Assembly (NCBI GenBank): GCA_964562525.1
Contig: CAZLTL010000007.1
Coordinates: 32,026 to 96,025 of the forward strand
Origin: an uncultured bacterium
GTDB taxonomy: Bacteria > Omnitrophota > Omnitrophia > Omnitrophales > Aquincolibacteriaceae
Length of the DNA: 64,000 bases
Reading direction: 5' to 3'
The notes beneath the pieces were generated by a model that had not been told where the DNA came from, searched no databases, and was given only the letters and a program-made list of their open reading frames with translations. Both the position numbers and the translations under genes were made by a program. Positions 8,659 to 61,129 of this stretch are shown piece by piece (the stretch's first letter is position 1; the number at the start of each line of letters is the position of its first letter).

Positions 8659-8714
8659 CTCAAAAGGTGGTCGTTAGAAAGAAGGGTCGAGGATTATAGC
8701 TAGGACGCGAGTCT

Positions 8715-8747: not shown

Positions 8748-8775
8748 AAGGGGCGGTCTATTGTCTTCGGTCGCT

Positions 8776-46761: not shown

Positions 46762-47832
46762 TTAAACCGTGCGCCGTAAAAAAGGAATCCGCAAAAGAAC
46801 AAGGGTCATAGCAAGTGAAAGCAAATAAATCACCGTCGTCGCCGCAAGCACCGTGAACACCGATGAATTCTCAAGCGGCGAAACCTTAAAACCTAACCTT
46901 CCTTTTTCAACCGCCTCCATCACCATGGGGTGCATTAAGTAAACGCCAAAACTCGCCTTTGATAATTCTCCCAAAATGGATTTAGCACGCGGAGACCAAT
47001 TCTCCATTTGCGGCGCTGTTTTTTTCGCCATGATAAAAAGTGCCGCGGCATAAATCGCCACGTTCGGCGCGGTGTTTTCATAAAATAAAACATGGTAATA
47101 CCCTGTCTTCAAACACACCGCGTAAGTGCCCGCGATACAAATACCCAATGTGATTAAAGCGCCCCAGGGCGCGTATTTCCCAATCTTTTCCGGTGCGATG
47201 GCCCGCAAATAATAGCCCAATACAAAATAACCGATCATGCCCTGAGCCATGCCCACCGGCAAATAGAATTCGGGCTTCATCCCAAAGAAGATTTTAGAAA
47301 AATCCTGCGCAAAAGGCCACAGTGAAGCGAAAACAAACCATAGACCGATGAAGTAAAGGATATGGGCCGGCTTGGCATAACGCACAAAAACACGGAGGAT
47401 AGGTGTAACGAGATAAATGCCGATCAAAGCGTAAAAAAACCAAAGATGAAAATGAACTTGGTTTTTAGCAATGCGGGTCAGTCCCTCGCCCCAAGAAAAA
47501 TCAGCGTGCAGAAAATATTTTTTCCAAACCAAGTAAAGCACAGACCAAACCAAAAACGGAATTAAAATGCGGTTGAGGCGTTTCTTAAAAAAGTCGCCTA
47601 TCGATTGTTCGCTTGGCATCAGTAAGAGCGCGCCGCTTACCATGATAAACAAGCACACACAGCCTCGCACGAGGCTGTCGAAAAAATGAGTGAGCCACCA
47701 ATCCAAACGCGGTACTTTGTCGTATTGCGCGATCACATCCGCCGCGACATGAATGAAAACAATCCCAAAGGAAGCGATGAAGCGGATGGCATCAATCCAA
47801 ATGAGACTGGAACGAACAGCAGGCTTGGTCAT
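46762..47832 (-). CDS. Acyltransferase family 3 (membrane O-acyltransferase)
   Basis: 10 TM; N-terminal IDAIRFIASFGIVFIH. Confidence 0.7.
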   Translation of the reverse strand: MTKPAVRSSLIWIDAIRFIASFGIVFIHVAADVIAQYDKVPRLDWWLTHFFDSLVRGCVCLFIMVSGALLLMPSEQSIGDFFKKRLNRILIPFLVWSVLYLVWKKYFLHADFSWGEGLTRIAKNQVHFHLWFFYALIGIYLVTPILRVFVRYAKPAHILYFIGLWFVFASLWPFAQDFSKIFFGMKPEFYLPVGMAQGMIGYFVLGYYLRAIAPEKIGKYAPWGALITLGICIAGTYAVCLKTGYYHVLFYENTAPNVAIYAAALFIMAKKTAPQMENWSPRAKSILGELSKASFGVYLMHPMVMEAVEKGRLGFKVSPLENSSVFTVLAATTVIYLLSLAMTLVLLRIPFLRRTV

Positions 47833-47905
47833 ACCTACTATTATCGGAACACCCCTCGTTTGCTATTAGCCTCGATTAAATTAAAATCTCCGGGGGACCG
47901 CGGTT

Positions 47906-48412
47906 TTAACCGCCCTCCGCGGAAGAAAAGGGCTTCGCTCCGAACATTTGGAGCTTGAGGCGCGACGCGATTAAGCGCTGATTCATAATTGGAACGAGAC
48001 GTTTATAAACTTCATAGCCCAGCTCATGATCGACTTGCATCGCTCTGCGCAAGCGTACGCCGTCAATCGCCAAAAACTCCGCGTCCTGCTCCACCACCGC
48101 GTCAAACCGCCAGCGGTAAGGCGTAATCACCCAAGACCAGCCCACCACGTCTCCGGCGCCCAAAGTATGAAACACGCGTTTCTCGGGCTCAGCCTCGAAG
48201 CGGACATCCTGCTCAACGCCGATCAAATTAACTTTACCCTTTAAAATTAAAAAGAAATGTTCCGCCTTGCCGCCGTCGCGGAAAACCGTTTTGCCTTTGG
48301 CGATCTCGGTCACTTTGCCGAGCTTCGTGATTTGATTTCTGAAATCTTCGGACAAGCCTCTAAAAAAGGGGTGCTTCACTTTGGGTATAATCACTTTACG
48401 AGCATGACGCAT
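47906..48412 (-). CDS. Cyclic nucleotide-binding domain protein
   Basis: cNMP-binding fold GKTVFRDGGKAEHFFLILKGKV...GAGDVVGWSW. Confidence 0.65.
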   Translation of the reverse strand: MRHARKVIIPKVKHPFFRGLSEDFRNQITKLGKVTEIAKGKTVFRDGGKAEHFFLILKGKVNLIGVEQDVRFEAEPEKRVFHTLGAGDVVGWSWVITPYRWRFDAVVEQDAEFLAIDGVRLRRAMQVDHELGYEVYKRLVPIMNQRLIASRLKLQMFGAKPFSSAEGG

Positions 48413-48557
48413 GCACGACCTCCTTATAAATTAAAACACTTTGCTTCTGTGGCCCCGCCGACACCCGCTAAATTCGGATAGACACATCCTAAATAGGATA
48501 ATCAAGAATGGCAACTTTTAAATTTGAGGGAAATGAGGGCTTCTTTAATTGCGGCTT

Positions 48558-48968
48558 TTAACGCGTTTCATCTTTCACGGCAACATTAAGCTGGGCGGCA
48601 ATTTTCCGGGCTTCTTCAAGCGCCTGCTTATGTTTTATTTCCAAATCCGGCCCCATCGCCAAACCCGGCTCATACTGCAAAGTCGTGTTCAGCTGCTTCA
48701 AAATTACAAAACTGCCGTCCCGCAGCAAAAGCCCCACACGATAGATACCGCGCATTTTAAAATCAAAATAAGCCTTGTGATAGCGGACGCCGATTGCAAG
48801 CACTTGGTCACGGCTATAGACAGTCCTTCCCATCGCAACGCCCAACACACGGCGTTCGACCGCCACTTGCGATGAAGCGGTGCCTTCAACCAAGTGGTGA
48901 GAAATAATTTCCGGCGCCATCCAAAACAAAAAAACACCCAGCAAAATAAACGGCATCCATTTTTTCAT
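48558..48968 (-). CDS. Hypothetical secreted/membrane-anchored protein
   Basis: N-terminal hydrophobic segment. Confidence 0.4.
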   Translation of the reverse strand: MKKWMPFILLGVFLFWMAPEIISHHLVEGTASSQVAVERRVLGVAMGRTVYSRDQVLAIGVRYHKAYFDFKMRGIYRVGLLLRDGSFVILKQLNTTLQYEPGLAMGPDLEIKHKQALEEARKIAAQLNVAVKDETR

Positions 48969-49009
48969 TTTTCAACCCCTCCTCGCGGGGCGGTATACGT
49001 CTTATCTGT

Positions 49010-49327
49010 TTATTGGGTGTCTAACTTTTTTTGTCCGGCCAAAATCCATTTGTCATAACTTTTATGAAGCGAAACAAATGATTTAGAAATAGGGTTATGC
49101 GAAAAAGCATTCGTGAAAGTATTACGCGCCAAATTAAAATTGCCGCGAAAAACATACTCAAAGCCGCGGGCATACTCCAAGCGCTGACTGGGCTGCGAAA
49201 AATAAAAATACGCCCAAATCGCCAATAAAATCAGCGGCCATTTAAGCGCTTTCTTAAACAGCGCAATCCGCTGAGCCTTCTTATCGACGGGCGGCTTTTT
49301 TTCAGCGTACGGATTAACGTGTTCCAT
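49010..49327 (-). CDS. Hypothetical membrane protein
   Basis: 1 TM; 105 aa. Confidence 0.35.
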   Translation of the reverse strand: MEHVNPYAEKKPPVDKKAQRIALFKKALKWPLILLAIWAYFYFSQPSQRLEYARGFEYVFRGNFNLARNTFTNAFSHNPISKSFVSLHKSYDKWILAGQKKLDTQ

Positions 49328-49359
49328 TTTACATCCTTTTCGCCGGAAGCGACTTTTCG

Positions 49360-50007
49360 TTATCGTCTTTGAAGAAGATAAACATTTTGACGCATCCCCT
49401 CAACCGCGGAAAGCCGAGGCCCCTCGCTTTTGGGCTTTTCACTTTCCATCAATTGAATATCGAACGCATCCGCGTAAAGCCGCTCAATTTCAGTCTTACT
49501 GATGCTAAACGGCGGGCCTTCCATTTTGGATTGATCATATTCATAAACAATCAAAAGATATTTGCCGCCCACCTTGAGAGAGTCGCAGATCACGCGAGCA
49601 TAATCAACTCGCATGGAATCAGGCAAAGCCACCAAAGCGGCGCGGTCATAAATAAAATCATAAGAGTTCGTTTTATTCAGCTTAAAAAAATCACCGCAGC
49701 TGATACGAATATTTTGATGCGCATGGTCAATAAAATCAGCGCATTCTGTTTTGCACACAGACTCAAATTTGTTTTCAGCAAAAAAATCTTCGACAGCACC
49801 CGAATAAAGCTCGACGCCATGAACCTGCAACCCCAAACTCGCAAGCCAAACCATATCAATCGTCTTGCCGCACAAAGGCACCAGCACACTTTGCCCCGCC
49901 TGAGGCTGCATTTGCGGAAAATACTGCGTCAGCTTCGCATGATATTGTTGCTGATTAAACCCCGTCCGGCTCTCTTCCCAAGATTTAATCCAAAATTCAG
50001 GCTCCAC
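49360..50007 (-). CDS. Thiopurine S-methyltransferase (TPMT)-family SAM methyltransferase; GTG start
   Basis: FWIKSWEESRTGFNQQQYHAKL...VLVPLCGKTIDMVWLASLG. Confidence 0.7.
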   Translation of the reverse strand: MEPEFWIKSWEESRTGFNQQQYHAKLTQYFPQMQPQAGQSVLVPLCGKTIDMVWLASLGLQVHGVELYSGAVEDFFAENKFESVCKTECADFIDHAHQNIRISCGDFFKLNKTNSYDFIYDRAALVALPDSMRVDYARVICDSLKVGGKYLLIVYEYDQSKMEGPPFSISKTEIERLYADAFDIQLMESEKPKSEGPRLSAVEGMRQNVYLLQRR

Positions 50008-50019
50008 AAATCATTCCTT

Positions 50020-50065
50020 TTAACAGACTAAAAACCAACGACTGAAGACCGAAGACTAATGTCTT
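50020..50065. repeat. Repeat family A (cagactaMagaccaacgacYgaagactaaYgac; iterated NAAGAC/NAACGAC units) immediately upstream of the TPMT start
   Basis: Also at 51885-51930, 52322-52355 and 54526-54563. Confidence 0.55.
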
Positions 50066-50302
50066 CCCGCGGACGGCGTCCCGTTTTCACGGCGGAGTTT
50101 ATCGTCGCCTCTTTTGAATCAAAATCGTTATTCCGAAAGCAAGCGCAAGAGAAACCACAAAAACAACTGCTGCAATGCCAAAAAACTTTTGAATTTGCGG
50201 TTGCCGCGTCAAAGTTCCAACACTATAGCCCAAAGGCAACAACACAAAACCCCAGACTAACCACTCAATCCTTGGTTGAAACTTCATTTGCGTAATCCTC
50301 AA

Positions 50303-50461
50303 TCAGCTCAACAACAACTTAGGATTATGACAATGATATTGCCCAGTACCATTCGCCCAATTGTGGTGACAGCCTTGCGAATCCGTGCCCCCGCTGTGCG
50401 CAAAAGCAGAACCCGAAACTAGCATAACTAAAACAACAACCAATCCAAAAACTTTTTTCAT
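50303..50461 (-). CDS. YHYH-motif secreted protein
   Basis: AHSGGTDSQGCHHNWANGTGQYHCH; start at MKKVFGL with RBS GGGAGGG. Confidence 0.55.
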   Translation of the reverse strand: MKKVFGLVVVLVMLVSGSAFAHSGGTDSQGCHHNWANGTGQYHCHNPKLLLS

Positions 50462-50569
50462 TAATCTAAGCCCTCCCCGCCGCTTGTCCCGAGCAAAGCC
50501 GAGGGAGACGGCGTCCCGTTTTCCGTTTTCTTGCTTGGGCTCTGCGTCTAAGAGGTCTATAATCATTTC

Positions 50570-51079
50570 ATGAATTATACTTCATCAGAAATTCTAAACC
50601 CGAAAAAAGCTTCCGAGTCGCGCGTCGAGACAACTTATTTGATGATGCCCCATCACGCGAACCCCGCCGGCAATATTTACGGCGGATCCATTCTTTCGAT
50701 GGCAGATGCGGTCGCTTACATGTGCGCCGCGCGCCACAGCGGACCCGGGTGTGTCACGGTTTCTGTCGATCAGGTTGACTTTCGCAAACCTATTCTCATC
50801 GGTGAAGTGCTCACTTTCAAAGCTTCGATTAATTATGTCGGACGAACCTCGATGGAAGTCGGCATCCGCATTGAATCTGAGAATCTCAAGACAGGGAAAA
50901 AACAGCACACCAATTCTTGCTATTTCACGATGGTCTGCCTTGATGAAAACTACCAGCCAACTCCCGTCCCACCGCTTTTATGCGAAACCAAAGAAGAAAA
51001 ACGACGGTTTGCCGAAGGCCGCATCCGCCGCGAGCACGCTAAAGAACTTTCAGAGAAAAGAAAAAAACTCGAAATATAA
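50570..51079 (+). CDS. Acyl-CoA thioesterase (hotdog fold, YciA-like)
   Basis: MMPHHANPAGNIYGGSILSMAD. Confidence 0.75.
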   Translation: MNYTSSEILNPKKASESRVETTYLMMPHHANPAGNIYGGSILSMADAVAYMCAARHSGPGCVTVSVDQVDFRKPILIGEVLTFKASINYVGRTSMEVGIRIESENLKTGKKQHTNSCYFTMVCLDENYQPTPVPPLLCETKEEKRRFAEGRIRREHAKELSEKRKKLEI

Positions 51080-51130
51080 AATTAGTTCAAAACTCAGAGA
51101 TCAGAAATCAGAACCATAGCTCAAAACCTA

Positions 51131-51802
51131 TCAGCTAATCATCAAACTCTGAACTCTGATTTTTGAATTCTGAACTTTTCCTGCCTGTCCCCGCGGTACT
51201 CGGTACCTTTTTCTGGAAATGTTCCGATCTCTGTTTTGGAAACGCAAAAAAAGCATGCTGACAAAAACCATCAAAAGAAATAATCCAAGCCCCGACAACA
51301 AGAGAACATCTTTCAACTCCAAAATCTTAGCGCTGTTTAAATAAAATGCCGCTGCTAAAAATACTACCCCCGTAATAATCCCGCCAACAGGTACAATTAA
51401 AGCATAGGACTTAGAAACATCTATGGCTGACTGCAGTCGCCCTCTCTGTCCCTTTGAGCGCAAAATCGCATGGGGGTCGCGCAGAGGATGGAATGCATGA
51501 TATCGATAGAGACACAGAAAGAAAATAATTACTCCACTTCCAATAAAAAAAGGCAGTTTTTCAAAAAAACTCATCTTGTCTTCAACTGAAAACTTAATGG
51601 CTGGCATCTTGTTGTCGGAATCTTCCAAGCAAATAGATCTTAATTCTTCATACGCCTTTGAATTCAAGCTCTGATGAGGAACATCAAATTTTTTCCCATT
51701 TTCACACTCAACCACAAATTTTTTTTCATTGGTCATTAGTGTGCCAAATACCAAGCCAAACACTACGCCAAAAATAGTAGCCCACCACAAAGAAAAACTC
51801 AC
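51131..51802 (-). CDS. Hypothetical membrane protein
   Basis: 4 TM; 223 aa. Confidence 0.45.
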   Translation of the reverse strand: MSFSLWWATIFGVVFGLVFGTLMTNEKKFVVECENGKKFDVPHQSLNSKAYEELRSICLEDSDNKMPAIKFSVEDKMSFFEKLPFFIGSGVIIFFLCLYRYHAFHPLRDPHAILRSKGQRGRLQSAIDVSKSYALIVPVGGIITGVVFLAAAFYLNSAKILELKDVLLLSGLGLFLLMVFVSMLFLRFQNRDRNISRKRYRVPRGQAGKVQNSKIRVQSLMIS

Positions 51803-51911
51803 AAATCACTACCTCCATCAGAAAAAACTAAGCTGTCACTCTCTTGCTGAGCCAACCAGCTGCTTTTAAAAATGTTCTGAACAAAACAGACTACAGACCG
51901 ACGACTGAAGA

Positions 51912-52232
51912 TTACCGACTAACGCTTCTGCTCGCCAAGTAATCACGCAGCTTTTTTTCATCCCCTACAAATCTTATATTGTCCCGTGAGATCCAACTAC
52001 CAACGGTAACACCAACAGTCTCACCTTTGATCAGATTTCCTGTTTGCACTACGGTTCCCTTTTTAATAATGCCAAACATGGGCTGATTATTTATTTTTCC
52101 GAATAGTTCCAAATTAATATCTTCAAGAAGAACGCCATAAAAAGGAGAAGGACGAGGCTTCATCACGGCAGTCATAAAACCTGAGACATACACACAAAGC
52201 AGAACAATCACAGTCACAATTTTTCTTTTCAT
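51912..52232 (-). CDS. Hypothetical small secreted protein; C-terminal codons are supplied by repeat family A
   Basis: N-terminal signal/TM. Confidence 0.4.
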   Translation of the reverse strand: MKRKIVTVIVLLCVYVSGFMTAVMKPRPSPFYGVLLEDINLELFGKINNQPMFGIIKKGTVVQTGNLIKGETVGVTVGSWISRDNIRFVGDEKKLRDYLASRSVSR

Positions 52233-52565
52233 AGGTTTACCTTTTTAACCCGGCACTTTTACAAGCCGAAGCATCGCTTCGAACCAGTGGTCGCATGACC
52301 AGAAATGTTCCGATCGAAATCAGACTAAAGACCAACGACTGAAGACTAACGACTACTTTGAACCCGGTAAGCCTCGACATCAGTCGAGAACCAATGGTCG
52401 CATGACCACACTTTTAGAAATGTTCCGATCTCTGAGCAGACCCAAACATTTTTTCATTTATTTAACCCGGCACTTCCGGTACCGGTACCTTTTCTATTCA
52501 AATGACTAAAGACTACCCCTTCGACTTCGCTCAGGGCAAGCGACTACTTTGAAGCCTACACTTAT
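52233..52565. repeat. 333 bp intergenic mosaic of repeats: tandem units cgaaccagtggtcgcatgacc-agaaatgttccgatc, family A, family B (acccggcacttccggtaccggtacctttt), and a 62 bp duplicate (52438-52499) of the bla start region
   Basis: Each segment has one or more copies elsewhere in 50-55 kb; the reverse complement reads ATGAAAAAATGTTTGGGTCTGCTC, matching the first 8 codons of bla. Confidence 0.7.
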
Positions 52566-52928
52566 TTATACAGCTTCCAAAATCTCGCTGACTTTTTTCC
52601 GGAAATCCTCGATAGAAAAAGGTTTGGGCAAAAAACAAACCATATCTCCATCGGCAAAAATACTTTTCACGCTTTCGCGACTCGACATCACAAGCACAGG
52701 AATATTTCGGTAAGGCGAATCCGGACGCTTGAGGTTAACAAGCAACTCATATCCCGTCATTTCAGGCATCAACACATCGGTAGCGATCAAGTCAGGCTGA
52801 ATACGGCCCACACCATCTAACGCCGCCGCGCCATTGGAAAAAATGGTAACCTCATAATCCGCTCTCAGCATCGCCTTTAAAAGCGCCGCAAGGCTAGGAT
52901 CGTCGTCCACGATCATTATTTTTTTCAT
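52566..52928 (-). CDS. Single-domain CheY-like response regulator (orphan receiver)
   Basis: MKKIMIVDDD, phospho-acceptor D in LIATDVLMP, conserved K in FLPKP. Confidence 0.8.
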   Translation of the reverse strand: MKKIMIVDDDPSLAALLKAMLRADYEVTIFSNGAAALDGVGRIQPDLIATDVLMPEMTGYELLVNLKRPDSPYRNIPVLVMSSRESVKSIFADGDMVCFLPKPFSIEDFRKKVSEILEAV

Positions 52929-53020
52929 CTTACCTGTCCCTTTGGTAAACGGTACCTTTTTTACTCGCCTGTCCCCGCGATTCCCGGTACCTTTTTTTGG
53001 GCGACTAACGTCTTTTTTAG
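52929..53020. repeat. Two family-B-like units (cctgtccc-tttggtaaacggtacctttttt; cctgtccccgcgattcccggtaccttttttt) between bla and the receiver gene
   Basis: Shared ggtacc-Tn ends with the other B copies. Confidence 0.5.
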
Positions 53021-53818
53021 TTATTCAAATAAAGACTCAACAAGAACGCGAACATCTTTTCCCGTCGCGCCGTCACCTTTTACCACGGCTGCAAAAGCAT
53101 AATTTTCATTATGAGACTCAACATATCCGACAAACCAGCCATAGTTCGACTGCGGTGCGTTGTTCATGGCACTGCCCGTTTTTCCATAAAGCACGCTCTG
53201 CGAAACTTCCTTCACACGCATGATTTCTTTTAACCCTGCTCGCGTTTTTTCCGAAAAAGGCAATTGTCCTGAAACCAACCGGCACAAAAGCTGCGCTTGC
53301 TCAAACGGTGAAATCAAAATTGTTTGGCGGTTTTCAGCGGGGAGCCAAAAAACATCAAGCCCTGCACTGATATCCTCATTACCGTACCCGATGCGGTTCA
53401 GCCAATTTTGCATAGCCTCGGCTCCGATTGAGCGCGCCAAAGCTTGATACGCGGGCACGGAAGAAACACGGAATGCCTCTTTTAAATTCAAATTCTGATT
53501 CCAATCCGGAATCGCACGCGTCACACCGTCCCACTCGTAAAACGATTGCTCGGGAGAGGTCAGCACCCCCTCCTCAAATCCAATCAATGTATTCCAGATT
53601 TTAAAAGTGGAACACGGTGCCAGTTTTTTCGAAACCCCCTCGGGATTGAATTGCAAAGCTTGCTCCGACCCGCAATCCAGCATCACAAACGCACCGTCAC
53701 GCCCCTCAAAAATAGATTGAACCCTCGCCTCAGAAACCGGTAAAACACTCTCATTCGCCGCAACCGATAAGGCAGCATTGAAACAGAAACAAATGAGCAG
53801 ACCCAAACATTTTTTCAT
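53021..53818 (-). CDS. Class D (OXA-type) serine beta-lactamase
   Basis: Signal peptide; STFK (PCSTFKIW), SVP-type motif, YGN, KTG, and W..G (GWFVGYVE). Confidence 0.85.
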   Translation of the reverse strand: MKKCLGLLICFCFNAALSVAANESVLPVSEARVQSIFEGRDGAFVMLDCGSEQALQFNPEGVSKKLAPCSTFKIWNTLIGFEEGVLTSPEQSFYEWDGVTRAIPDWNQNLNLKEAFRVSSVPAYQALARSIGAEAMQNWLNRIGYGNEDISAGLDVFWLPAENRQTILISPFEQAQLLCRLVSGQLPFSEKTRAGLKEIMRVKEVSQSVLYGKTGSAMNNAPQSNYGWFVGYVESHNENYAFAAVVKGDGATGKDVRVLVESLFE

Positions 53819-53857
53819 TTATTTAACCCGGCACTTCCGGTACCGGTACCTTTTTCT
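53795..53857. repeat. 62 bp repeat (copy 2) spanning the bla start codon and the 3' end of the upstream gene; identical to 52438-52499 except one T
   Basis: Direct alignment gagcagacccaaacattttttcatttatttaacccggcacttccggtaccggtacc. Confidence 0.75.
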
Positions 53858-54396
53858 GTTTTCTGTAATTCAGAGCCCATGTTAATTAAGTCAGTTAAAT
53901 TTGCTCCGGCTGCATAGCTAATCATAAATTTTCCGTGCTGAAGCTCTTCGATTAATTTTTTCAATCGATGAACTTTTATCCCAGCTTGTTCAATCAGTCT
54001 GACTTCATCTTCAGACTTCACATTGTGAATGACGAGCTCACTAGACCACGGTTTGTTGAAAAGAGCTTGCATCAACTTTCTCTTTTTAGGTTCATTAAAT
54101 TTTATTTCAACCCATTCCTTGACACCTTGCTCCAGATCCCCAGGCTCTCGCTTAGCGCTAGTTGCACCGCGCCCTTTAGCCCGCTGAACTTCTTTTGGAA
54201 CCCTAGATATATAGCTGACAGGACGCATAGAAGCTTGCACTTCGATATGCCGACATTCTTCAACCTCCGCACCTTTAATCTTAATTGCCAAAAGATCCAT
54301 TTCATGAACACCGAGCTTGATACCACGAATGGTAAAATAACCCTGCCGATTTAACCATTCCTCCACAATTTCTTCTGCCAACAATGCCATAGACAA
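53815..54396 (-). CDS. YraN/UPF0102-like PD-(D/E)xK-fold protein with the Lys position occupied by Gln (EVQ), plus a ~110 aa C-terminal extension; stop overlaps the bla start (ATGA)
   Basis: EEWLNRQGYFTIRGIKLGVHEMDLLAIK...IEVQAS parallels the YraN GEIDLIA...VEVK pattern; the C-terminal GTGTGSAGLNK is encoded by repeat family B. Confidence 0.45.
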   Translation of the reverse strand: MSMALLAEEIVEEWLNRQGYFTIRGIKLGVHEMDLLAIKIKGAEVEECRHIEVQASMRPVSYISRVPKEVQRAKGRGATSAKREPGDLEQGVKEWVEIKFNEPKKRKLMQALFNKPWSSELVIHNVKSEDEVRLIEQAGIKVHRLKKLIEELQHGKFMISYAAGANLTDLINMGSELQKTEKGTGTGSAGLNK

Positions 54397-54429
54397 CCTC
54401 TAGCTAACTTTTACCTTTTATACTTAACC

Positions 54430-54595
54430 TTTAACCTGCACTCTTACCTGTCCCCGCGGTACCCGGTACCTTTTTTTTCCAACCTGGCACTTCCGGTACC
54501 GGTATCTTTTTCTTAATCAAATCAGACTACAGACCAACGACCGAAGACTAACGACTTTTCGAACCCGGCACTTCCGGTACCGGTACCTTTTTAGA
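54430..54595. repeat. Cluster of family B repeats (three copies) and family A (54526-54563) between the DUF4062-like gene and the nuclease-like gene
   Basis: cctgtccccgcggtacccggtaccttttt; aacctggcacttccggtaccggtatcttttt; aacccggcacttccggtaccggtaccttttt. Confidence 0.65.
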
Positions 54596-55553
54596 AAGGA
54601 ACATTCTCATCCGGGGCATCGAGCACATCCAACTTCAGATCCGCTTCTTTCCATTCTTCAGGCGTAAAAATCTTTAAACGCCCTTCAGCATCAAATATAC
54701 TTTTATTGAACTTCAATAGATGTATTTTCTTGCCTCGGGTCTCCGTCCATTCAATAAAATTGGGACTATCCCAAAGCTCTTCCACCATCATGGAAAAACC
54801 ACGTGCTCTTAGCCAAGCCTCAAACTCTGATTTATTAGTAAAATAAATTCGATAGGGAATTTTCAACATTTTCTTAAGTTGATTAAAAATTGGATGGCTA
54901 CCCAACAATATTTCTCGAATAGCAGCGTCTCCTCTTTCTTTTGCGCTGGTTAAAAAAGAAACCAACTGTTTTAGAGTTGCGATCATTTCTTTCATATCAG
55001 CCAGATCTAATAATTCTTTCTGCCGTGCATTCTCCTGAAGTAACCGCTGAAAAAGACCCGCCCATTGCTCCTGAAGATAGCCTGTAATATCTGCCGTAAT
55101 TTCAAATCCAGCCACTTGATTATTAAATGGTAAAGCAAAAACTTCGTCCAAAAATTTATAGATTTTGAGATCATCAACAGCGGCCGGCTTAAACTGCGCG
55201 TTGTCTCGATTTTTTTCATATGTTTTGTGTTCCGCAAGAACATTTTTTTCAACAAAAACATATATTTGTTTGTTTAATTCAATAGCTGTTTTCAACTCTT
55301 GCTGTGAAATTGAATAATCTTTCTCTTTTGACGGGCTACCATAACGACCTCCCACAATTGAAATAATAATGTCACAATGCTCTATTTCCTTATAACAGTA
55401 CTCTTCTAATTTTTTTTCTGCGCCATAAGCAACTGCACCACGCTCATGGAGAACAGGCTCAAAGCCTCTTTCCTTAATAAATCTTTCTAAATCAGCCCGA
55501 ACTACTTTTAAATCGTAATAAGTTGAACTCACAAAAACCCTAGGTCTTGCCAT
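54591..55553 (-). CDS. DUF4062-like N-terminal domain protein with an uncharacterised C-terminal region
   Basis: RVFVSSTYYDLKVVRADLERFIKERGFEPVLHE...CDIIISIVGGRYGS fits the DUF4062 start (VF[IV]SST..DL...R). Confidence 0.45.
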   Translation of the reverse strand: MARPRVFVSSTYYDLKVVRADLERFIKERGFEPVLHERGAVAYGAEKKLEEYCYKEIEHCDIIISIVGGRYGSPSKEKDYSISQQELKTAIELNKQIYVFVEKNVLAEHKTYEKNRDNAQFKPAAVDDLKIYKFLDEVFALPFNNQVAGFEITADITGYLQEQWAGLFQRLLQENARQKELLDLADMKEMIATLKQLVSFLTSAKERGDAAIREILLGSHPIFNQLKKMLKIPYRIYFTNKSEFEAWLRARGFSMMVEELWDSPNFIEWTETRGKKIHLLKFNKSIFDAEGRLKIFTPEEWKEADLKLDVLDAPDENVPF

Positions 55554-55670
55554 TTATAAACTCCTAAATTTAACTCGATACAAAAACCCAACTCTTTCGA
55601 TATTGCTTAGCTAGATCGAAAGAGTTATCAAAACAGGAAACCTTTTTGAGAGAAAAGTTTCTCCATTTCA

Positions 55671-55775
55671 CAGCCCCCCACCCCTCTTTGAACGAGGGGT
55701 TCAAGTCCGTTCTTTCGAAGCTGCGAGTTCTGCGCCGTCAGGACGCAGTTGTCTGAGCAGACCGAAAGAACGGAT
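55671..55775 (+). repeat. Structured repeat element copy 2: cagcccccca head, hairpin cccctc-tttgaac-gagggg, 12 bp stem tccgttctttcg(55706-55717)/cgaaagaacgga(55763-55774) around the conserved 45 nt core
   Basis: Core aagctgcgagttctgcgccgtcaggacgcagttgtctgagcagac differs from copy 1 at two positions. Confidence 0.55.
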
Positions 55776-55798
55776 TGAACCGAGCCACTTATATCGAA

Positions 55799-55828
55799 CT
55801 GGATTCCCGCCTTCGCAGGAATGACAGA
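55799..55828. repeat. REP-like element ctggattcccgccttcgcaggaatgacaga
   Basis: Same family as 604-630 and 679-708. Confidence 0.45.
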
Positions 55829-55892
55829 CAAAAAATATAGAAACAATCACAGGTGTCAGGCACCGATTACGATGCCAGACACCCGAACAAAC

Positions 55893-55925
55893 AAAAAGCC
55901 CGATGATTGCTCATCGGGCTTTTAA
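55893..55925 (-). terminator. Rho-independent terminator of nrdB (agcccgatga-ttgc-tcatcgggct, followed by TTTTTGTTTG on the minus strand)
   Basis: 10 bp perfect stem plus T-run. Confidence 0.75.
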
Positions 55926-55947
55926 AACATTCCGACTACTTCTCAGA

Positions 55948-55972
55948 CTGGATTCCCGTTAGGGAATGACAA
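55948..55972. repeat. REP-like hairpin ctggattccc-gtta-gggaatgacaa
   Basis: Perfect 6 bp stem; family member. Confidence 0.5.
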
Positions 55973-55982
55973 TCGTCGTTTT

Positions 55983-57044
55983 TTACTCGTCCCAAGTCAA
56001 CGTTCCGCCTACTTGGTATTCGGTTACGCGCGTCTCAAAGAAATTCTTTTCTTTGCGAAGATCAATCACTTCACTCATCCAAGGAAAAGGATTTTCCGTC
56101 TTGCCGTATTGCTTATTGAGATTGAGTTTTTCCATGCGGCGATCAGCAATATGCTTAATGTATTGTTCAAGCATGGTATGCGTTAAACCCATGAGCCCAT
56201 TCGGAAGAAGATCTTTCGCGTAAGCGATTTCAAGCGCGACGCCTTCACGGAACATTTCTTCACATTCAGCTTTAAACTTTTCAGTCCAAACTTCCGGGTT
56301 TTCTTTGACGATGGTATTGATCAAGTCGATACCAAAGTTAAGATGCATCGATTCATCGCGCAAAATGTACTGAACCTGTTCGCATGTTCCCGGCAAACGG
56401 TTTTGACGGCCGAATGAAAGCAGCATCACAAACGCCGCGTAAAAGAAAACGCCTTCCATCACACCCGAAAAAGCCACCATGTTGCGGAGCAAACGCTGTT
56501 TGCCTTCAAGCGTGCTGGTGTCGAGATTCGGATTGCAAAGATCTTCGGTGTAGCGCGCTTCGAACTCAGCTTTGTCATGCATGGTTTTGCATTCGCGGTA
56601 CATGTTATAAAGCTCGGGCTCATCAAACGAAAGCGATTGCGGAATATATTGATACGCGTGCGTATGAATCGCTTCTTCGAAAGCTTGACGCAAAAGATAT
56701 TGGCGGCATTCCGGCGCGTTGATGTGCTTATAAAGACCAAGCACAAGGTTGTTGGCGACTAAAGTATCAGCCGTGGTAAAGAAACCAAGGTTGCGTTTAA
56801 TCATCAAGCGCTCATCATCCGTAAAAGCCTTAGGGTCTTTCCATTGCTCAATGTCGCGCTGCATGGAAACTTCCTGCGGCATCCAGTGATTAGCGCAGCT
56901 ATCAAGATAGTATTGCCATGCCCATTCATATTTAATGGGAATCAGCTGATTCACATCCACCGCCTTCGAGGCAAGGATGCGCTTGTCATCCTTGTTAATC
57001 TTTTGCGTTGTGAATGGGATGATGTCTTCTTTTCTGTCTAACAT
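55983..57044 (-). CDS. nrdB: Ribonucleoside-diphosphate reductase beta subunit (class Ia)
   Basis: Ferritin-like diiron fold; EEAIHTHAY and FVMLLSFGRQ motifs. Confidence 0.9.
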   Translation of the reverse strand: MLDRKEDIIPFTTQKINKDDKRILASKAVDVNQLIPIKYEWAWQYYLDSCANHWMPQEVSMQRDIEQWKDPKAFTDDERLMIKRNLGFFTTADTLVANNLVLGLYKHINAPECRQYLLRQAFEEAIHTHAYQYIPQSLSFDEPELYNMYRECKTMHDKAEFEARYTEDLCNPNLDTSTLEGKQRLLRNMVAFSGVMEGVFFYAAFVMLLSFGRQNRLPGTCEQVQYILRDESMHLNFGIDLINTIVKENPEVWTEKFKAECEEMFREGVALEIAYAKDLLPNGLMGLTHTMLEQYIKHIADRRMEKLNLNKQYGKTENPFPWMSEVIDLRKEKNFFETRVTEYQVGGTLTWDE

Positions 57045-57096
57045 GTTGAATTTCTCCTAATTCAGAAACTTATAAAAACAACTGACTCAAAAACTT

Positions 57097-57240
57097 AACA
57101 CATCTTTTGATAACCGCAAATAGTATGCCAAACAAAATTAGATCAGAGTTCAGAAATCAAAGATCAGAACCATAGCTTAAAATTCAAAGACCTTAAAAAT
57201 ATCTTTGAGCTCTGATCTATGGTTCTGATTTCTGATCTAT
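57097..57240. repeat. nrdA-nrdB intergenic inverted repeat agatcagaaccatag...ctatggttctgatct (arms about 57148-57175 and 57208-57240); an element family also present at 51097-51125
   Basis: Long imperfect palindrome; shared motif agatcagaaatcagaaccatagct. Confidence 0.55.
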
Positions 57241-57255
57241 AATTTTTGAACTTGC

Positions 57256-60200
57256 CTATTGGCAGGCTTCGCAGTCAGGTCCGTTCTCGATACTGCAAAC
57301 CATTTTCGCACGCGCCGCGGCTTCCGCATCGGCATCAACCACCGGTGCTTCAGGCTTTTTGTTGCGGCCGAGCGGGTCACCGTACTTATTCGCATCGAGC
57401 GTTGATTTCTCAATACGCGTCGCGCCAAGCGAACGGAGATAGTAAGTGGTTTTAAGACCGCGGGTCCACGCAAGCTGATACATTTGGCTCAAACGCTTTC
57501 CGTTTGGTTCTTCCATGTACAAGTTGAGTGATTGGCCCATATCGATCCACTTTTGACGGCGGCTTGCGCATTCAATGATCCATTCATGGCTGATTTCAAA
57601 CGCCGTGAGATAGCGTTCTTTGATCGATTCCGGAATGCGGCCGATTTCCTGCAAATTGCCGTCGAAGTATTTAAGATCATCGATCATTTGCTGATCCCAA
57701 AGGCCAAGCGCTTTCAGCTCGTCTACGAGATAAGGATTCGCGATCGTGAATTCACCCGACAAATTGCTCTTCACATAAATGTGTTTGTACATCGGCTCAA
57801 TCGACTGCGTTACGCCGGCAATGTTGCCGATCGTCGCTGTCGGCGCGATGGCCATACAATTGGAATTGCGCATGCCGTATTGCTTGATATGCTCGCGCAC
57901 CGGCTTCCAGTCGAGACGGCTGGAAGTATCCATATCAAGATATCCGCCGCGTTCGTCTTTCAGCAATTGAATGGTGTCGATCGGAAGCATGCCGCGGTCC
58001 CACTTGGAACCTTTGTAGCTGCCGTAAGTGCCTTTTTCTTTCGCGAGTTTGCTGGAACCCAAAATCGCGTAATACGAAATGGCTTCCATGCTCGCGTCGG
58101 CAAAATCAACCGCCGCTTGCGAAGCATAGCTGATCGCCTGAATATAAAGCGCGTCCTGAAAACCCATGATGCCGAGTCCTACCGGACGATGACGCAAATT
58201 AGCGTTCTTCGCTTCGATAGTCGGATAGAAGTTAATATCAATCACGTTATCAAGCATACGCATCGCAGTTTCAACCGTATCCGCCAAAAGTTTTTGGTTG
58301 AGTCCGGATTCCGTTGTATGCGCCGCCAAGTTGATGGAACCGAGATTGCACACCGCAGTTTCTTCGTTGGAAGTGTTAAGCAAAATTTCCGTGCAAAGAT
58401 TCGAGCTATGCACCACGCCCGCGTGATCCTGCGGAGAGCGGATGTTCGAAGGATCTTTGAAAGTAATCCACGGATGACCGGTTTCAAAAACCTGAGTCAA
58501 CATTTTGCGCCAAAGCTGAACGGCGGGAATCTTTTTGAAAAGAGCGATTTCTCCGCGCGCGGCTTTTTCTTCATAAGCGACATAACGCGCTTCAAAGTCT
58601 TTGCCGTAAGTGTCGTGAAGGTCTTTGGCTTCATTCGGGCTGAACAAAGTCCAATCTTCATTCGCCAAAACGCGCTTCATGAAAAGATCGGGAATCCAGT
58701 TCGCGGTATGCATATCATGCGTACGGCGGCGGTCATCCCCGGTGTTTTTACGAAGCTCAAGAAAATCTTCGACGTCAATGTGCCAGCATTCAAGATAAGC
58801 GCAAACCGCGCCTTTGCGTTTTCCGCCCTGGTTCACCGCAACAGCCGTATCATTGGCAACCTTCAAGAACGGCACCAACCCTTGGCTACGTCCGTTGGTT
58901 CCCTTAATGATAGAACCCATGCCGCGCACGCGTGTCCAGTCATTACCGAGGCCGCCCGACCATTTGGAAAGCTGAGCGTTGTCTTTCACACACTTGAAGA
59001 TGTGATCAAGATCGTCATCGACAGTGGTTAAGAAGCAGGAAGAAAGCTGAGAGTGCAAAGTGCCCGCGTTGAAAAGCGTCGGGGTCGAGCTGACAAAACG
59101 GAAAGACGAAAGCACTTCATAAAATTGAATCGCGCGTTCGGTTTTGTTTTTGCCTTCCACCAAAGAAAGCCCCATGGCCACGCGCATCCAGAAAGATTGC
59201 GGTGTTTCAAGGCGGCGGCCTTTTTCATGGATGAAATAGCGGTCATACAAAGTCTGCAAACCGATATACCCGAAAAGCAAATCGCGTTCAGGCTTCAAAG
59301 CCGCGCCGATTTTTTCAAGGTCAAACTCAAGCAAATCCGGAGAAAGGCGCTCAAACTTCACCATCGCCGTTAAAGCGGTGACGAAAGAAGTCGCATATTC
59401 TTTCTTCATATCTTTCATCATCAGCGGACGGCCGACGACTTCGGCATAAAGCTTGCGGAGAAGAATGCGCGCGGCAACCGAGCTGTACGCGGGCTCTTTT
59501 TCAATCAGAACACGAGTCGCAAGCAGCATCGCTTCGGTGAGCTGACTTTCTTTGATGCCGTTGAAGCAATTTTTAACTGTCCCCTTCAAAATTTCTTCAA
59601 CCGAAACTTTGTCTTCAAGACCATGGCAAGTTTCAGCAATGATGAGCTTCAGCTTTTCAACATCAAGACGTTCGGTGGAACCGTCTTCATGCGCGACGCG
59701 GATATTGGTGAGGCTCGCAAGCGGCTGAGCCTGTTCATTGGCTTCGGCAAAACGCTGTTGGCGCTGTTTTTCGCGGTAAACGATGTAATCGCGCGCGACA
59801 TCATGCTGCGCGGTTTCCATCAAAGACAATTCAACGATATCCTGGATTTCTTCGATATCAATCGTGTGAACGCCGGTATATTGATTCTTAAGGTAGTTCA
59901 CCACTTTGTCGGAAAGCAGCAAAACGCTTTGCTGAGTTTCAGGCTGCAAAGGATATTGATTCTTGCAAGCGGCAAAAGCTTTCGCGAGCGCGATCGTAAT
60001 TTTTTCAGGCTTGAACGAAACCACGCGCCCATCGCGCTTCTTCACCGTAAGACGCTCATGTTCGAAACGGCGCATTTCATGCTCGCGGCGGTAATTGTCA
60101 TATTCTTTGGAAATATCTTCAAAACCGGCAGCCTGAAGTTCACGCACCACGGTGTTTTGAATATCTTCGATAAAAACGATACTGCCCTTGGCGCCTTCGG

Positions 60201-60405: not shown

Positions 60406-60839
60406 GCTGGAAATCTCCTAACTTTGAGAGATAAAAATCTTAAAAAAACAATAAATCTTGGGTGCTTGACGGTGGGTCAAAAAACGTGCGGAAGTGATAA
60501 TAAAATAAAACGGTCTAAGGCATCAAAATAAGACTGTTTTTCACTCCAACCGCCTTTCCTTTCGGAAAGTTTGATTTTTCCACATACTTCTATTGGTTGT
60601 ATGTTAAAAAACCAAAACACCCCATATCTAGTACCGCTAAACTCATTATTCGTCCTGAATTGGAGAACCTTGAGAGTTATTTAGCAGAACTTTTTTGGTG
60701 TGTTCAAGCGATGCAAATTATGTCAGAAATTTATTCAATCGCAAGCGGTTTTTTAGTGTTTTTTTGCACTTTTTTTACACAAAATCTTTTTAAAACTTTT
60801 TATAAAAAACAAATGAAAACAAATGCTAGTTTTTAAGCG

Positions 60840-61110: not shown

Positions 61111-61129
61111 CATTTAAAAAATAATGCGC

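Follow-up and report, generated by a model that had tools for sequence, protein, structure and literature searches.

Genes of the hotspot and its flanks

The 64-kb stretch of source genome analysed here (the window), from a bacterium that one named homologue places probably in Candidatus Omnitrophota, contains, at about 48.4-55.9 kb, a chromosomal hotspot that extends from nrdB to a gene for a cNMP-binding protein. It holds some ten short accessory cassettes, most of them with a single gene and almost all on one strand. All features below lie on this minus strand unless stated, and all comparisons draw on the window and about a dozen related contigs. The conserved upstream flank, nrdB (ribonucleotide reductase small subunit; 55983..57044; Pfam Ribonuc_red_sm on the identical Logan gene), is 84-87% identical in nucleotide sequence to its counterparts in the related loci L016, L017 and L018. 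The upstream border of the array is a conserved, strongly structured non-coding element (55589..55835) recognized by conservation and folding; it is 91-93% identical to L016 and L018, exceeding nrdB, and its 136-nt core (55655-55790) has a predicted fold of -58 kcal/mol (z = -4.3). An Rfam search with the element returned no match. On the downstream side, conserved synteny restarts at the cNMP-binding protein gene (47906..48412; Pfam), from which the window is collinear with L017 onward.

Read along the coding strand, the first cassette encodes a DUF4062 protein of 320 aa (54591..55553; Pfam PF13271, 1.2e-19) and is missing at the equivalent slot in L016, L017 and L018. The second holds a 191-aa ORF (53815 to about 54390; ORF list); the original prediction had called it nuclease-like, a label that found no backing, with no significant match in Pfam, NCBIfam, PADLOC, PHROGs or PDB. 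The third encodes a class D (OXA-like) beta-lactamase of 265 aa (53021..53818; Pfam Transpeptidase; NCBIfam bla_class_D_main, 9e-62, at a score of 208 bits that lies below the cutoff of 250) with a signal peptide and STFK, SSV and KTG motifs. The fourth is a stand-alone receiver-domain response regulator of 120 aa (52566..52928; Pfam Response_reg, 5.6e-20), 88% identical in nucleotides over the gene (363-nt BLAST match, 89.5%) to an L017 homologue that is placed on the other side of the TPMT gene. The fifth and sixth, taken from the ORF list, are a 106-aa ORF (51912..52232) and a 223-aa membrane-like ORF (51131..51802). Beyond them lie a 4HBT thioesterase gene (50570..51079, plus strand; Pfam 4HBT, 1.5e-20), a semi-conserved anchor within the array and its only opposite-strand gene, and a YHYH-domain secreted peptide of 52 aa from the ATG at 50461 (50303..50461; NCBIfam YHYH_alt, 1.1e-10). 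The TPMT methyltransferase gene (49360..50007; Pfam TPMT, 2.7e-61) is found in all relatives, in varying order relative to the adjoining cassettes.

Repeat families and junction modules

The repeat-saturated island of interleaved families described in the original prediction is real. All of the listed families are present far above chance: A, B1, B2, C and E gave no match in any of 100 dinucleotide-preserving shuffles, while the 14-mer D averaged 0.02 matches and reached three in none. The repeats are restricted to 50,008-54,600 of the window, an inverted A/E copy near 8.7 kb excepted, and a sensitive self-BLAST of the 64 kb detected no A, B, C or D elsewhere. Family A (CAGACTAAAGACCAACGACTGAAGACTAACGAC on the plus strand) has the anticipated four or more copies, with complete ones at 50024, 51887, 52321 and 54523, a 13-nt remnant at 53000-53012 and a copy at 52500-52556 split by motif E; on the coding strand it is an exact period-7 array (GTCGTTA GTCTTCA GTCGTTG GTCTTTA GTC). 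Family B, put at seven or more copies, has nine, namely four of B1 (52464, 53825, 54481, 54562), four of B2 (51184, 52933, 52968, 54447) and a B1 tail (52247-52258). The window holds two copies of GAACCAGTGGTCGCATGACC and three of GAAATGTTCCGATC. Motif E occurs once in the island and once, inverted, outside it; the outlying copy had been rightly noticed, but lies at 8726-8750 rather than 8715-8747.

The start of the OXA gene is duplicated, as predicted, although the exact repeat is 61 nt long, not 62 bp, and lies about 5 nt from the coordinates first given. It is made up of B1, the leader AAATAA and the first 25 nt of the OXA ORF; copy I (53794..53854) belongs to the intact gene, and copy II (52433-52493) ends in an 8-codon OXA stub.

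The five families resolve more aptly into a grammar: 3' (X) and 5' (Y) junction modules, within which smaller elements are nested. X modules directly follow stop codons and combine an A-tract with a small hairpin: X1 is an A-run plus a GGTACC(G)GGTACC hairpin, X2 is family D (AGAGATCGGAACATTTC) and X3 is family G (AAAACGGGACGCCGTC). Y modules directly precede start codons and carry a Shine-Dalgarno-like sequence: Y1 is AAGTGCCGGGTTAAATAA-ATG, Y2 is GGGGACAGGTAAG-ATG and Y3 is CGGCGGGGAGGGGTTAA-ATG. B1 corresponds to X1+Y1, about 30 nt with a 7-bp hairpin, and B2 to X1+Y2; the heptad array A, the C-hairpin, E and another element, K, are fillers nested in X/Y modules. A bipartite geometry, GGNAC-N17/18-GTWAA, was also noticed and is only loosely supported.

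The junctions of the window follow this grammar. Junction 1 (54443..54592) consists of B1, array A, a B1 variant and B2, in that order, and junction 3 (52929..53012) of the 13-nt array A remnant and two B2 copies, up to the response-regulator ATG. Junction 4 (52233..52565) begins with the E-split array A, copy II of the 61-nt repeat, D, a C-hairpin and a Y1 tail, and continues with array A, D, a C-hairpin, Y1 and a ribosome-binding site. Before the YHYH gene lies a G module (50470..50522; X3 AAAACGGGACGCCGTC, a nested hairpin and Y3 CGGCGGGGAGGG), and before TPMT another G (X3) followed by an array A that finishes 16 nt upstream of the start codon (50008..50098). A repeat search of the island found neither inverted repeats linking junction modules nor terminal inverted repeats.

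Module copies in nine loci all point the same way along the array (104 of 104), and in each locus, relatives included, they are restricted to the variable region. The window and L016 share B1 at 100% identity over 31-42 nt, while TPMT and nrdB reach only 59-67% at four-fold sites. The X1 hairpin appears as GGTACC.GGTACC, GGTGCC.GGCACC and GGTGAC.GTCACC, and the C-hairpin has three different stems of 6-7 bp across five copies; by this covariation both predicted hairpins are shown to be real. Pairing between modules and genes is also kept: Y1 accompanies OXA, Y2 the response regulator and Y3 signal-peptide genes; two unrelated proteins, encoded in L016 and L018, have the Y3 leader and 21-residue signal peptide of the YHYH peptide. 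Modules adjoining a start codon resemble ribosome-binding leaders, and modules may serve as such leaders or as RNA hairpins.

Gene ends are shaped by the same pieces. The 191-aa ORF ends within B1 (...EKGTGTGSAGLNK*), as proposed, which supplies its last 12 codons and not 10; the 106-aa ORF terminates within array A, also as proposed, and the 223-aa ORF reads through D and B2 (51180-51232). The GGTACC palindrome with its T-run does form a terminator-like site, but solely on the strand antisense to nearly all genes. The wider claim of a recombination mosaic shaping gene ends and promoters is well supported for gene ends, on the strength of these read-through ORFs and of the synteny, shared cassettes, breakpoints and recurring stubs described below, but finds no support for promoters, for which a sigma-70 scan found 3 sites against 5.1 expected, at or below chance.

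Cassette exchange among relatives and breakpoints within modules

Compared by synteny, related loci have the same flanks and other genes between them, bounded by the same modules, in agreement with the mosaic first proposed. Five related metagenomic loci hold different genes in the hotspot: L016, L017, L018 and L019 keep nrdA-nrdB and TPMT around differing intervening genes, and L021 has TPMT without nrdAB. The cNMP-binding gene is kept in L017 and L021, and a downstream Acyl_transf_3 gene in L017 and L018. Shared cassettes (response regulator, 4HBT, TPMT, a 105-aa ORF and YHYH) differ in order among loci, and the 105-aa ORF is re-ordered relative to TPMT without any module. Cassette cargo includes a toxin-antitoxin pair, a lipocalin, a cupin and small secreted proteins.

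Sharing of cassettes between lineages is established by near-identical genes. A 217-aa gene is 99.7% identical between L016 and L018 and agrees at 87 of 87 four-fold sites, against 75-76% at such sites in core genes. The near-identical block (98.3% over 764 nt) has its limits in two successive G modules, in the Y3 part of the first and the X3 part of the second, beginning directly after GACGCCGTC and ending just past the next GGACGCCGTC, and L016 carries a second, partial copy of the gene (100% over 261 nt). The 4HBT gene is 95% identical in nucleotides to that of L017, with 84% at four-fold sites against 59-65% in core genes. Four other contigs carry copies of the OXA gene, 97-99% identical in nucleotides, next to different genes; the X modules there differ, and Y1 is the same. 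Adjacency of OXA and the response regulator is found in two other assemblies (L022 and L025), whose spacer has a full array A and a different ribosome-binding sequence where the window has the array A remnant and two B2 copies.

Breakpoints fall within the modules. Six truncated genes were found: OXA in the window, the 175-aa and 217-aa genes in L016, a homologue of the 106-aa ORF in L023 (an 8-codon stub, then D), the response regulator in L024 and 4HBT in L018, where a 3' fragment stands alone, cut precisely at the X1 left edge. In all six the cut is on the same side and coincides exactly with an X module's left edge; the 5' stubs had no microhomology wherever the intact gene could be compared.

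Origin of the array and comparison with known systems

We give about an even chance to the reading in which the island forms the variable core of a hotspot on the chromosome, with integron-like cassettes that lack integron machinery and are shuffled by recombination at shared modules. Relatives would exchange short single-gene cassettes at this hotspot, an OXA-type beta-lactamase among them, and the repeats would be reusable junction pieces; because unrelated cassettes carry identical pieces, the junctions would act as portable homology. Incoming DNA from relatives would recombine at these modules, most likely by a short-homology (RecA-type) pathway following horizontal transfer, and replication slippage or template switching at hairpins may assist. 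Cassettes would thereby be swapped, re-ordered, duplicated and truncated, and the duplicated OXA start, as a partial tandem duplication, would be one outcome. Searches of all ORFs of at least 110 aa in the 64 kb detected no integrase or transposase domain, and the 10 kb on either side in relatives yielded none either. Since the unrelated X1, X2 and X3 all bound cassettes, and some shuffled genes have no module, generic recombination fits better than a single dedicated site. Against this reading, polar, edge-precise stub junctions characterize site-specific or transpositional events more than homologous recombination, the strict co-orientation and perfect 30-40-nt conservation of modules suggest strong selection or else an active process with sequence specificity, and the homology tracts, at 17-42 nt, are rather short for RecA to recombine efficiently.

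Such observations lend weight to a dedicated site-specific cassette system, integron-like in function but with different sites and a recombinase encoded elsewhere, which would cut and join at X-module edges and leave 5' stubs through secondary-site insertion followed by X-by-X deletion. The exact X left edge (AGAGATCGG... or an A-run plus GGTACC) recurs at at least 13 junctions in five assemblies next to unrelated upstream sequence. The one-sided truncation of all six genes, the uniform orientation of the 104 modules, their perfect conservation against about 60% neutral-site identity, X cores that are small palindromes, one of them covarying, the module-defined limits of the 217-aa block, and cargo typical of integron arrays, beta-lactamase included, point in the same direction. 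We nevertheless regard this system as tenable but doubtful: the sequence searched around the hotspot, here and in relatives, encodes no recombinase, the system would have to accept three or more unrelated X sequences as substrates, certain genes were re-ordered without any module, and neither circular intermediates nor empty sites were observed.

Decidedly unlikely, in our assessment, is an accumulation of selfish miniature elements (REP/BIME- or MITE-like, perhaps mobilized by a RAYT or IS200/IS605-type single-strand transposase) in a region that evolves fast and tolerates them, with cassette turnover proceeding separately via the conserved flanks. Nesting is what such elements would produce: the C-hairpin sits at two different positions within D+Y1, E lies within A both in the island and, oppositely oriented, at 8.7 kb, the G hairpin of L016 carries a further insert, and in L023 element K is split by a D+Y1 copy, GTAAAT being a possible target duplication. 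Strand-specific, replication-linked transposition, as in IS608 and REP biology, would likewise agree with the small hairpins and the uniform orientation, and two Logan assemblies break at B1, as expected for multi-copy sequence. But families A-D are absent, the copy near 8.7 kb aside, from the other 59 kb of the window with its dozens of intergenic regions, and copies in relatives keep to the variable region. The modules stand in fixed register with stop and start codons, travel with particular genes and have no terminal inverted repeats, and the window has no transposase.

That the mosaic is an assembly artefact, with repeats causing collapse or chimeric joining, is very improbable. The contig is of metagenomic origin, k=31 unitigs cannot verify how segments are ordered between identical repeats of 30-61 nt, and Logan look-ups did not recover 52494-54562. 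However, the two independent Logan assemblies, from two runs, match the window exactly over 47601-52493 and 54563-61261, including the junction of the OXA stub with D, a Logan contig (L014) matches junction 4 exactly, and modules, stubs and the OXA-response regulator adjacency reappear in at least six further assemblies, made from different samples.

A classical integron cassette array or CALIN (an attC cluster without integrase) is effectively refuted: the co-oriented single-ORF units with minimal spacers vary between relatives and include an OXA gene, and the Y1 end GTTAAAT fits the attC R' consensus GTTRRRY, but R'' (RYYYAAC)/R' pairs 50-150 nt apart number one in 9.5 kb on either strand, against 0.7 by chance and the one per junction needed at about ten junctions, no inverted repeats connect the junction modules, B1 spans only about 30 nt with a 7-bp hairpin, and the window encodes no IntI-like protein.

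The likeness to integron arrays, including sedentary chromosomal ones and CALINs, is nonetheless close. Both have co-oriented, mostly single-ORF cassettes with very short spacers and a repeated element that separates one gene's stop codon from the start of the following gene; gene content and order vary between close relatives, cassettes are shared horizontally, and the cargo comprises a beta-lactamase, a toxin-antitoxin pair, a lipocalin and many small ORFs of no assigned function. The hotspot differs in having no attC structure or nearby integrase, in junctions built from several unrelated short modules instead of one structured site, in a Y part that remains attached to the following gene, whose ribosome-binding sequence it supplies, and in the frequency of truncated gene starts. 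The pdif (XerC/XerD) modules of Acinetobacter plasmids carry OXA genes or toxin-antitoxin pairs between short recombination sites in varied contexts, and the hotspot likewise has small OXA and toxin-antitoxin units bounded by short sequences in differing contexts. However, pdif sites are 28-bp XerC-spacer-XerD sequences of alternating orientation, whereas the modules are all direct repeats and no site of pdif form is present.

Intergenic arrays combined from short repeat modules are also known as BIMEs in E. coli and as NIMEs in Neisseria, where a role in recombination and in diversifying the neighbouring genes has been suggested (PMC1797815). In NIMEs, RS elements lie between inverted dRS3 repeats of 20 bp, at sites scattered over the whole genome, whereas the modules have no inverted brackets, are all co-oriented, keep a stop/start register and occupy one hotspot in the available sequence. 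Minimal mobile elements (Saunders and Snyder 2002, as cited in PMC1797815) and other core-gene-flanked hotspots of horizontal transfer resemble the locus in placing alternative genes at a syntenic site between conserved flanks without mobility genes. As that citing paper presents them, minimal mobile elements move by homologous recombination after DNA uptake; here, by contrast, exchange involves single genes within the site, and breakpoints lie in internal repeat modules as well as in the conserved flanks. Finally, intergenic heptamer direct repeats are represented by cyanobacterial STRR sequences and the TAACTGA repeats of Beggiatoaceae (PMC4679880). Like them, family A forms intergenic tandems of three to six heptamers (GTCNNNN), sometimes a few nucleotides before a start codon, as at TPMT, but its heptamer is a different and degenerate one, and it is part of a larger composite (G-A-D-Y1) tied to cassette junctions.

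Gene content and repeats of the island

The repeats lie within a variable run of short accessory genes (cassettes), mostly on the − strand, that extends from nrdB to a gene for a cNMP-binding protein (approximately 48.4–55.9 kb). Read along the − strand, the array opens with a DUF4062 protein (54591–55553) matching the phage family phrog_15411, followed by a 191-aa open reading frame (ORF; 53815–54390, −), a class D beta-lactamase-like protein (OXA; 53021–53818, −), a stand-alone receiver-domain response regulator (RR), two small ORFs, a 4HBT thioesterase on the opposite strand, a 52-aa YHYH peptide (50303–50461), a small membrane ORF and, last, TPMT, whose closest named homologue (78% identity) is annotated as Candidatus Omnitrophota. 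The genes nrdB and nrdA lie upstream, and two small ORFs followed by the cNMP-binding protein and an acyltransferase lie downstream. The rest of the window is housekeeping, including shikimate and branched-chain amino-acid synthesis, enolase and transporters, and no tRNA or tmRNA that could act as an integration target lies in the window. The OXA translation carries the STFK, SSV and KTG motifs and scores 208 bits against the NCBIfam model bla_class_D_main, for which the curated cutoff is 250; homologues outside its own cluster reach at most 58% identity. The 191-aa ORF, termed nuclease-like in the original prediction, matched no family or solved structure in profile and structure searches, and the label is dropped here. 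Together with the DUF4062 gene it fills the slot in which relatives carry defence genes.

A non-coding stretch (55589–55835, −; core 55655–55790) separates the first cassette from the nrdB terminator and has counterparts in two of the related metagenomic loci, L016 (5881–6016) and L018 (5084–5220), and none in a third, L017. Its identity across genomes (91–93%) is above that of nrdB, and its core is predicted to fold into a long near-perfect hairpin and a second stem (−58 kcal/mol, z = −4.3). The stretch has no Rfam match: Rfam gave 0 matches over the window at gathering thresholds, and a permissive scan of 49.9–56.1 kb gave only two (E about 0.3–1), both on the nrdB terminator region. It could be an RNA of a new kind or a DNA site at the array border.

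Both strands of 49.5–55.2 kb were read, and the full 64-kb window was searched for every motif that had been reported. The repeat families that had been claimed are present, and far beyond chance: A, B1, B2, C and E had 0 matches in 100 dinucleotide-preserving shuffles, while the 14-mer D averaged 0.02 matches and reached three in none of the 100. The island contains four full copies of the heptad array A, plus a remnant and a further copy that motif E interrupts; four copies of B1, four of B2 and one tail of family B; two of C; three of D; and one of E, which recurs inverted at 8726–8750. An additional family, G (GACGGCGTCCCGTTTTC on the + strand), has two copies, and every island repeat lies on one strand only. 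By sensitive self-BLAST and core k-mer scans, A–D and G are confined to the island, the other 59 kb being empty save for one A/E composite at 8.7 kb. In this sole composite beyond the island (8700–8790), heptads flank E and run opposite to the neighbouring genes, so that A and E do not always follow the direction of genes. Family A, read on the coding (−) strand, repeats with an exact period of 7 (GTCGTTA GTCTTCA GTCGTTG GTCTTTA GTC), and 15 such arrays of three to five units, with GTC at exact period 7, occur in eight loci. The claimed duplication of the OXA gene start likewise holds, as an exact 61-nt repeat (52433–52493 and 53794–53854) in which B1 is joined to the leader AAATAA and to 25 nt from the start of the OXA ORF.

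Other repeats accompany these families. Hairpin-like inverted repeats of one such family, CAGAGATCAGAAATCAGAACC and its inverted counterpart, stand between the convergent genes for ORF223 and 4HBT (51084–51176) and again in the nrdA–nrdB spacer (57147–57252). Two GTCATTCC(N)GCGAAGGCGGGAATCCAG-like copies (55800–55835 and 55935–55960) yield spurious 'VIPAKAGIQ' ORFs; repeats of this type occur in many environmental genomes. A scan of GTDB representative genomes with the B1 19-mer returned 11 loci, which we read as chance matches because each is a single copy in unrelated sequence with no B1 flanks; three of them are near-identical and come from two related Gammaproteobacteria MAGs. Viral contigs gave 0 matches for four module or element patterns, and a 47-aa ORF built wholly of repeats, used as the query for repeat-derived ORFs, had no match.

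Other assemblies bear on the concern that the island might be an assembly artefact. Two Logan assemblies, which are independent assemblies of SRA runs (SRR13355621 and SRR13355622), reproduce 47601–52493 and 54563–61261 exactly and both stop in B1; it follows that the OXA stub does adjoin D and that the read graph contains B1 more than once. Neither run number turned up in a published paper. The segment 52494–54562 lies outside these matches, and exact-protein look-ups for OXA, the 191-aa ORF and RR, all encoded within it, returned no record. The OXA–RR gene pair was found again in two other assemblies.

Conserved flanks and a common junction grammar

When metagenomes were scanned with B1, a single contig was returned: L016, which has four exact B1 copies and is the syntenic locus of a relative, running from TPMT to nrdB–nrdA with different genes between. 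TPMT homologues led to L017, L018, L019, L020, L021 and the more distant L026. In these relatives the flanks are kept and the interior gene content differs: nrdAB, TPMT and the downstream flank (cNMP-binding/Acyl_transf_3) show 79–93% nucleotide identity around a wholly different interior. Conserved flanks, alternative content and cassettes more alike than core genes mark the site as a core-gene-flanked hotspot of horizontal gene transfer. Genes also change places, with RR upstream of TPMT in the window and downstream of it in L017, a 105-aa ORF that lies to different sides of TPMT in these two genomes, YHYH on opposite sides of 4HBT between loci, and 4HBT reduced to a 3′ fragment in L018. The first slot after nrdB in L017 (3299–4292) is taken up by a PDC-M50A/B pair (ThsB-like TIR), which is a candidate for anti-phage defence, and L018 carries a BrnT toxin and CopG-type antitoxin pair beside TPMT; the hotspot thus also appears to be a defence and toxin–antitoxin island. 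In L026 (5000–20000), TPMT (62% identical) stands amid approximately 25 small co-oriented ORFs with 1–140-nt spacers, including DUF1428, glyoxalase-like, adenine glycosylase and sulfotransferase genes, and B1/B2-like modules are found at three junctions only. Judged from this locus, arrays of this kind may predate the modules seen today.

In gene orientation, junctions in nine loci follow the order stop codon, 3′ module (X), 5′ module (Y), start codon. X1 is an A-run plus GGTACC(G)GGTACC, X2 (family D) is AGAGATCGGAACATTTC and X3 (family G) is AAAACGGGACGCCGTC; the 5′ modules are Y1, AAGTGCCGGGTTAAATAA-ATG, Y2, GGGGACAGGTAAG-ATG, and Y3, CGGCGGGGAGGGGTTAA-ATG. B1 is X1+Y1 and B2 is X1+Y2, and X2+Y1 and X3+Y3 occur too. 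In or between the modules stand fillers: the heptad array A (mostly as G-A-D-Y1), the C-hairpin of approximately 40 nt, found at two different insertion positions inside D+Y1, E nested in A, and K, seen in L016 and L023. All detected module copies (104/104, nine loci) are direct and co-oriented with the array, and in every locus they are restricted to the variable region. K, a repeat of approximately 60 nt rich in GTACG/CGTAC palindromes (AATTAAGTAAATCGTAAAGCGTACAAAGTAC...CGATGTCACGC; L023, 2335–2515 and 3295–3350; L016, 3245–3312), follows Y1 and is often truncated by the D module that comes after it; one instance shows a possible GTAAAT target duplication.

Modules also keep company with particular genes, Y1 accompanying OXA in five contexts and Y2 accompanying RR. 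Y3 and a 21-residue signal peptide (MKKVFGLVVVLVMLVS.SAFA) are common, at the nucleotide level, to three unrelated mature proteins, the 52-aa YHYH peptide, a 162-aa protein and a 111-aa protein (window 50303–50461; L016 4465–4953; L018 7045–7380; L017 4946–5104), a pattern that, at the sequence level, points to shuffled gene 5′ ends.

The X1 palindrome covaries (GGTACC.GGTACC; GGTGCC.GGCACC in L026; GGTGAC.GTCACC in L016), with 91% of cells paired and double changes in two of five pairs, compared with 18–51% pairing in slid controls. Five copies of the C-hairpin show three different perfect stems of 6–7 bp, and B1 folds into a 7-bp hairpin (CCGGUAC/GUGCCGG, −11.6 kcal/mol) with a loop that is variable in relatives. 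Because the X1 and C-hairpin stems covary and the B1 loop varies, we regard the hairpins as selected features. They do not fit intrinsic terminators of the cassette genes, in which a GC-rich hairpin is followed by a U-tract on the transcribed strand, since here the A-run precedes the hairpin; a terminator-like form is confined to the antisense (+) strand (51195–51207 and 54458–54470), a position in which only the oppositely directed 4HBT gene could use it. Canonical terminators are present after nrdB. Nor did the proposal that the repeats shape promoters find backing, a sigma-70 scan yielding three where 5.1 were expected. A bipartite GGNAC-N17/18-GTWAA geometry in B1, B2, D+Y1 and G has the look of an ECF-type promoter, and its strict form occurs in the 64 kb at the two OXA leaders and two coding sites, nothing else; that it might serve as such a promoter is a weak idea.

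Exchange of cassettes and its possible mechanism

At fourfold-degenerate sites, TPMT and nrdB of the window share 59–67% identity with L016, L017 and L018, while B1 is 100% identical between the window and L016 over 31–42 nt, and D and Y1 are identical in five assemblies. Some cassettes, too, are more alike than core genes. OXA shows 97–99% nucleotide identity to four other contigs, 4HBT 84% at fourfold sites between the window and L017, and a 217-aa gene 99.7% nucleotide identity between L016 and L018 (87/87 fourfold sites), against 75–76% at fourfold sites of their core genes. The near-identical stretch that contains the 217-aa gene (764 nt at 98.3%; a second, partial copy in L016 matches at 100% along 261 nt) starts directly after GACGCCGTC of one G module and stops just past the next GGACGCCGTC, beyond which divergence is at about background level. 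OXA has different neighbours by contig (Cupin_7, DUF6404 and lipocalin), and the OXA–RR spacer is array A in L022 and L025 and two B2 modules in the window. Cassettes and junction pieces have therefore been exchanged between lineages with breakpoints in modules, and truncated gene starts recur, which upholds the idea of a recombination mosaic shaping gene ends. The region is, from these comparisons, an integron-like, repeat-bounded cassette hotspot at a site conserved across related Omnitrophota, with a mobile OXA-like gene.

Six gene copies are truncated: OXA in the window, 4HBT in L018, a 175-aa gene (14 codons) and the 217-aa gene (63 codons, leader kept) in L016, an ORF106 homologue in L023 (8 codons) and RR in L024 (5 codons). 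All six are cut on the array-downstream side and touch the exact left edge of X1 or X2, with no microhomology at the cut where the intact gene is known, and every truncated start fits the form of a partial tandem duplication, [X-Y-gene...][X-Y-stub][X...]. With moderate confidence, we propose recombination at shared junction modules after horizontal DNA transfer: DNA of relatives would enter and recombine at these modules, and hairpin-promoted slippage would yield the duplicated gene starts. The precision of the edges is the main observation that simple homologous recombination leaves unexplained, and these one-sided cuts favour the main rival, a dedicated site-specific system, which we nevertheless hold doubtful as no recombinase domain is present in window ORFs of at least 110 aa. 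Transposase domains are likewise absent from those ORFs, and no Phage_integrase or other recombinase was found within 10 kb on either side in L017, L018 and L019. An explicit form of such a system, which we judge unlikely, would be a cassette system new to description in Omnitrophota relatives, in which a sequence-specific, non-IntI enzyme cutting X edges captures, excises and rearranges Y/X-bounded single genes at a single chromosomal site, with the structured element by nrdB as entry site or regulator. Selfish miniature elements (REP/RAYT, or IS200/IS605-derived) would fit the covarying hairpins and the nesting of repeats, but the strict codon register, the restriction of the copies to the hotspot and the absence of any transposase, including a Y1 HUH gene, within 64 kb make it quite improbable that they are the whole story.

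To our knowledge, integrons are almost the only known case of gene-cassette arrays whose content changes from one close relative to another. Here the same turnover occurs without attC sites and without an integrase in view, in a candidate phylum known from metagenomes only. If a dedicated mechanism is at work, modular gene capture would have been solved a second time, independently, and a site-specific enzyme would make the system a functional integron analogue built from different parts, already mobilizing a class D beta-lactamase among environmental lineages. On the conservative reading of recombination at shared modules, a few reusable stop-to-start junction modules make a chromosomal site a shuffling platform, producing chimeric gene starts such as one leader and signal peptide on three unrelated proteins. 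This platform would also circulate a divergent OXA-type beta-lactamase between lineages, which may bear on reservoirs of resistance genes and their pick-up by conventional mobile elements.

Comparison with known systems

The literature search found no paper tying Omnitrophota to integrons or cassettes in a relevant way. Co-oriented single-gene cassettes and content that varies between relatives are features shared with integron arrays. An integron or CALIN was rejected on its attC sites, taken as 55–150-nt imperfect palindromes with complementary R″ (RYYYAAC) and R′ (GTTRRRY) at each junction: 9.5 kb contained one R″/R′ pair on either strand, against 0.7 expected by chance, and approximately ten junctions had none. 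The lone pair, ATTTAAC...GTTAAAT upstream of OXA, is not repeated at other B1 copies. An IntI recombinase, which a complete integron would carry with attI beside the array, was found neither in window ORFs of at least 110 aa nor within 10 kb on either side in L017, L018 and L019. The pdif/Xer modules differ in their 28-bp XerC-6 nt-XerD sites in alternating orientation, which are not present here, nor are inverted site pairs; the likeness to dif is limited to a 7-nt resemblance of GTTAAAT to a dif arm.

Family A is alike in form to the STRR/TAACTGA arrays, head-to-tail heptanucleotide repeats in intergenic DNA (PMC4679880). With BIME/NIME mosaics (PMC1797815) the island shares the combinatorial use of several short, intergenic repeat families in variable order, whereas the inverted-repeat (dRS3) brackets and alternating REP orientation of those mosaics are missing: 104/104 copies are direct, and no inverted repeats were found between junction modules in the window. 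Minimal mobile elements and related hotspots likewise pair conserved flanks with alternative content, and differ in that the units of exchange here are internal to the region.
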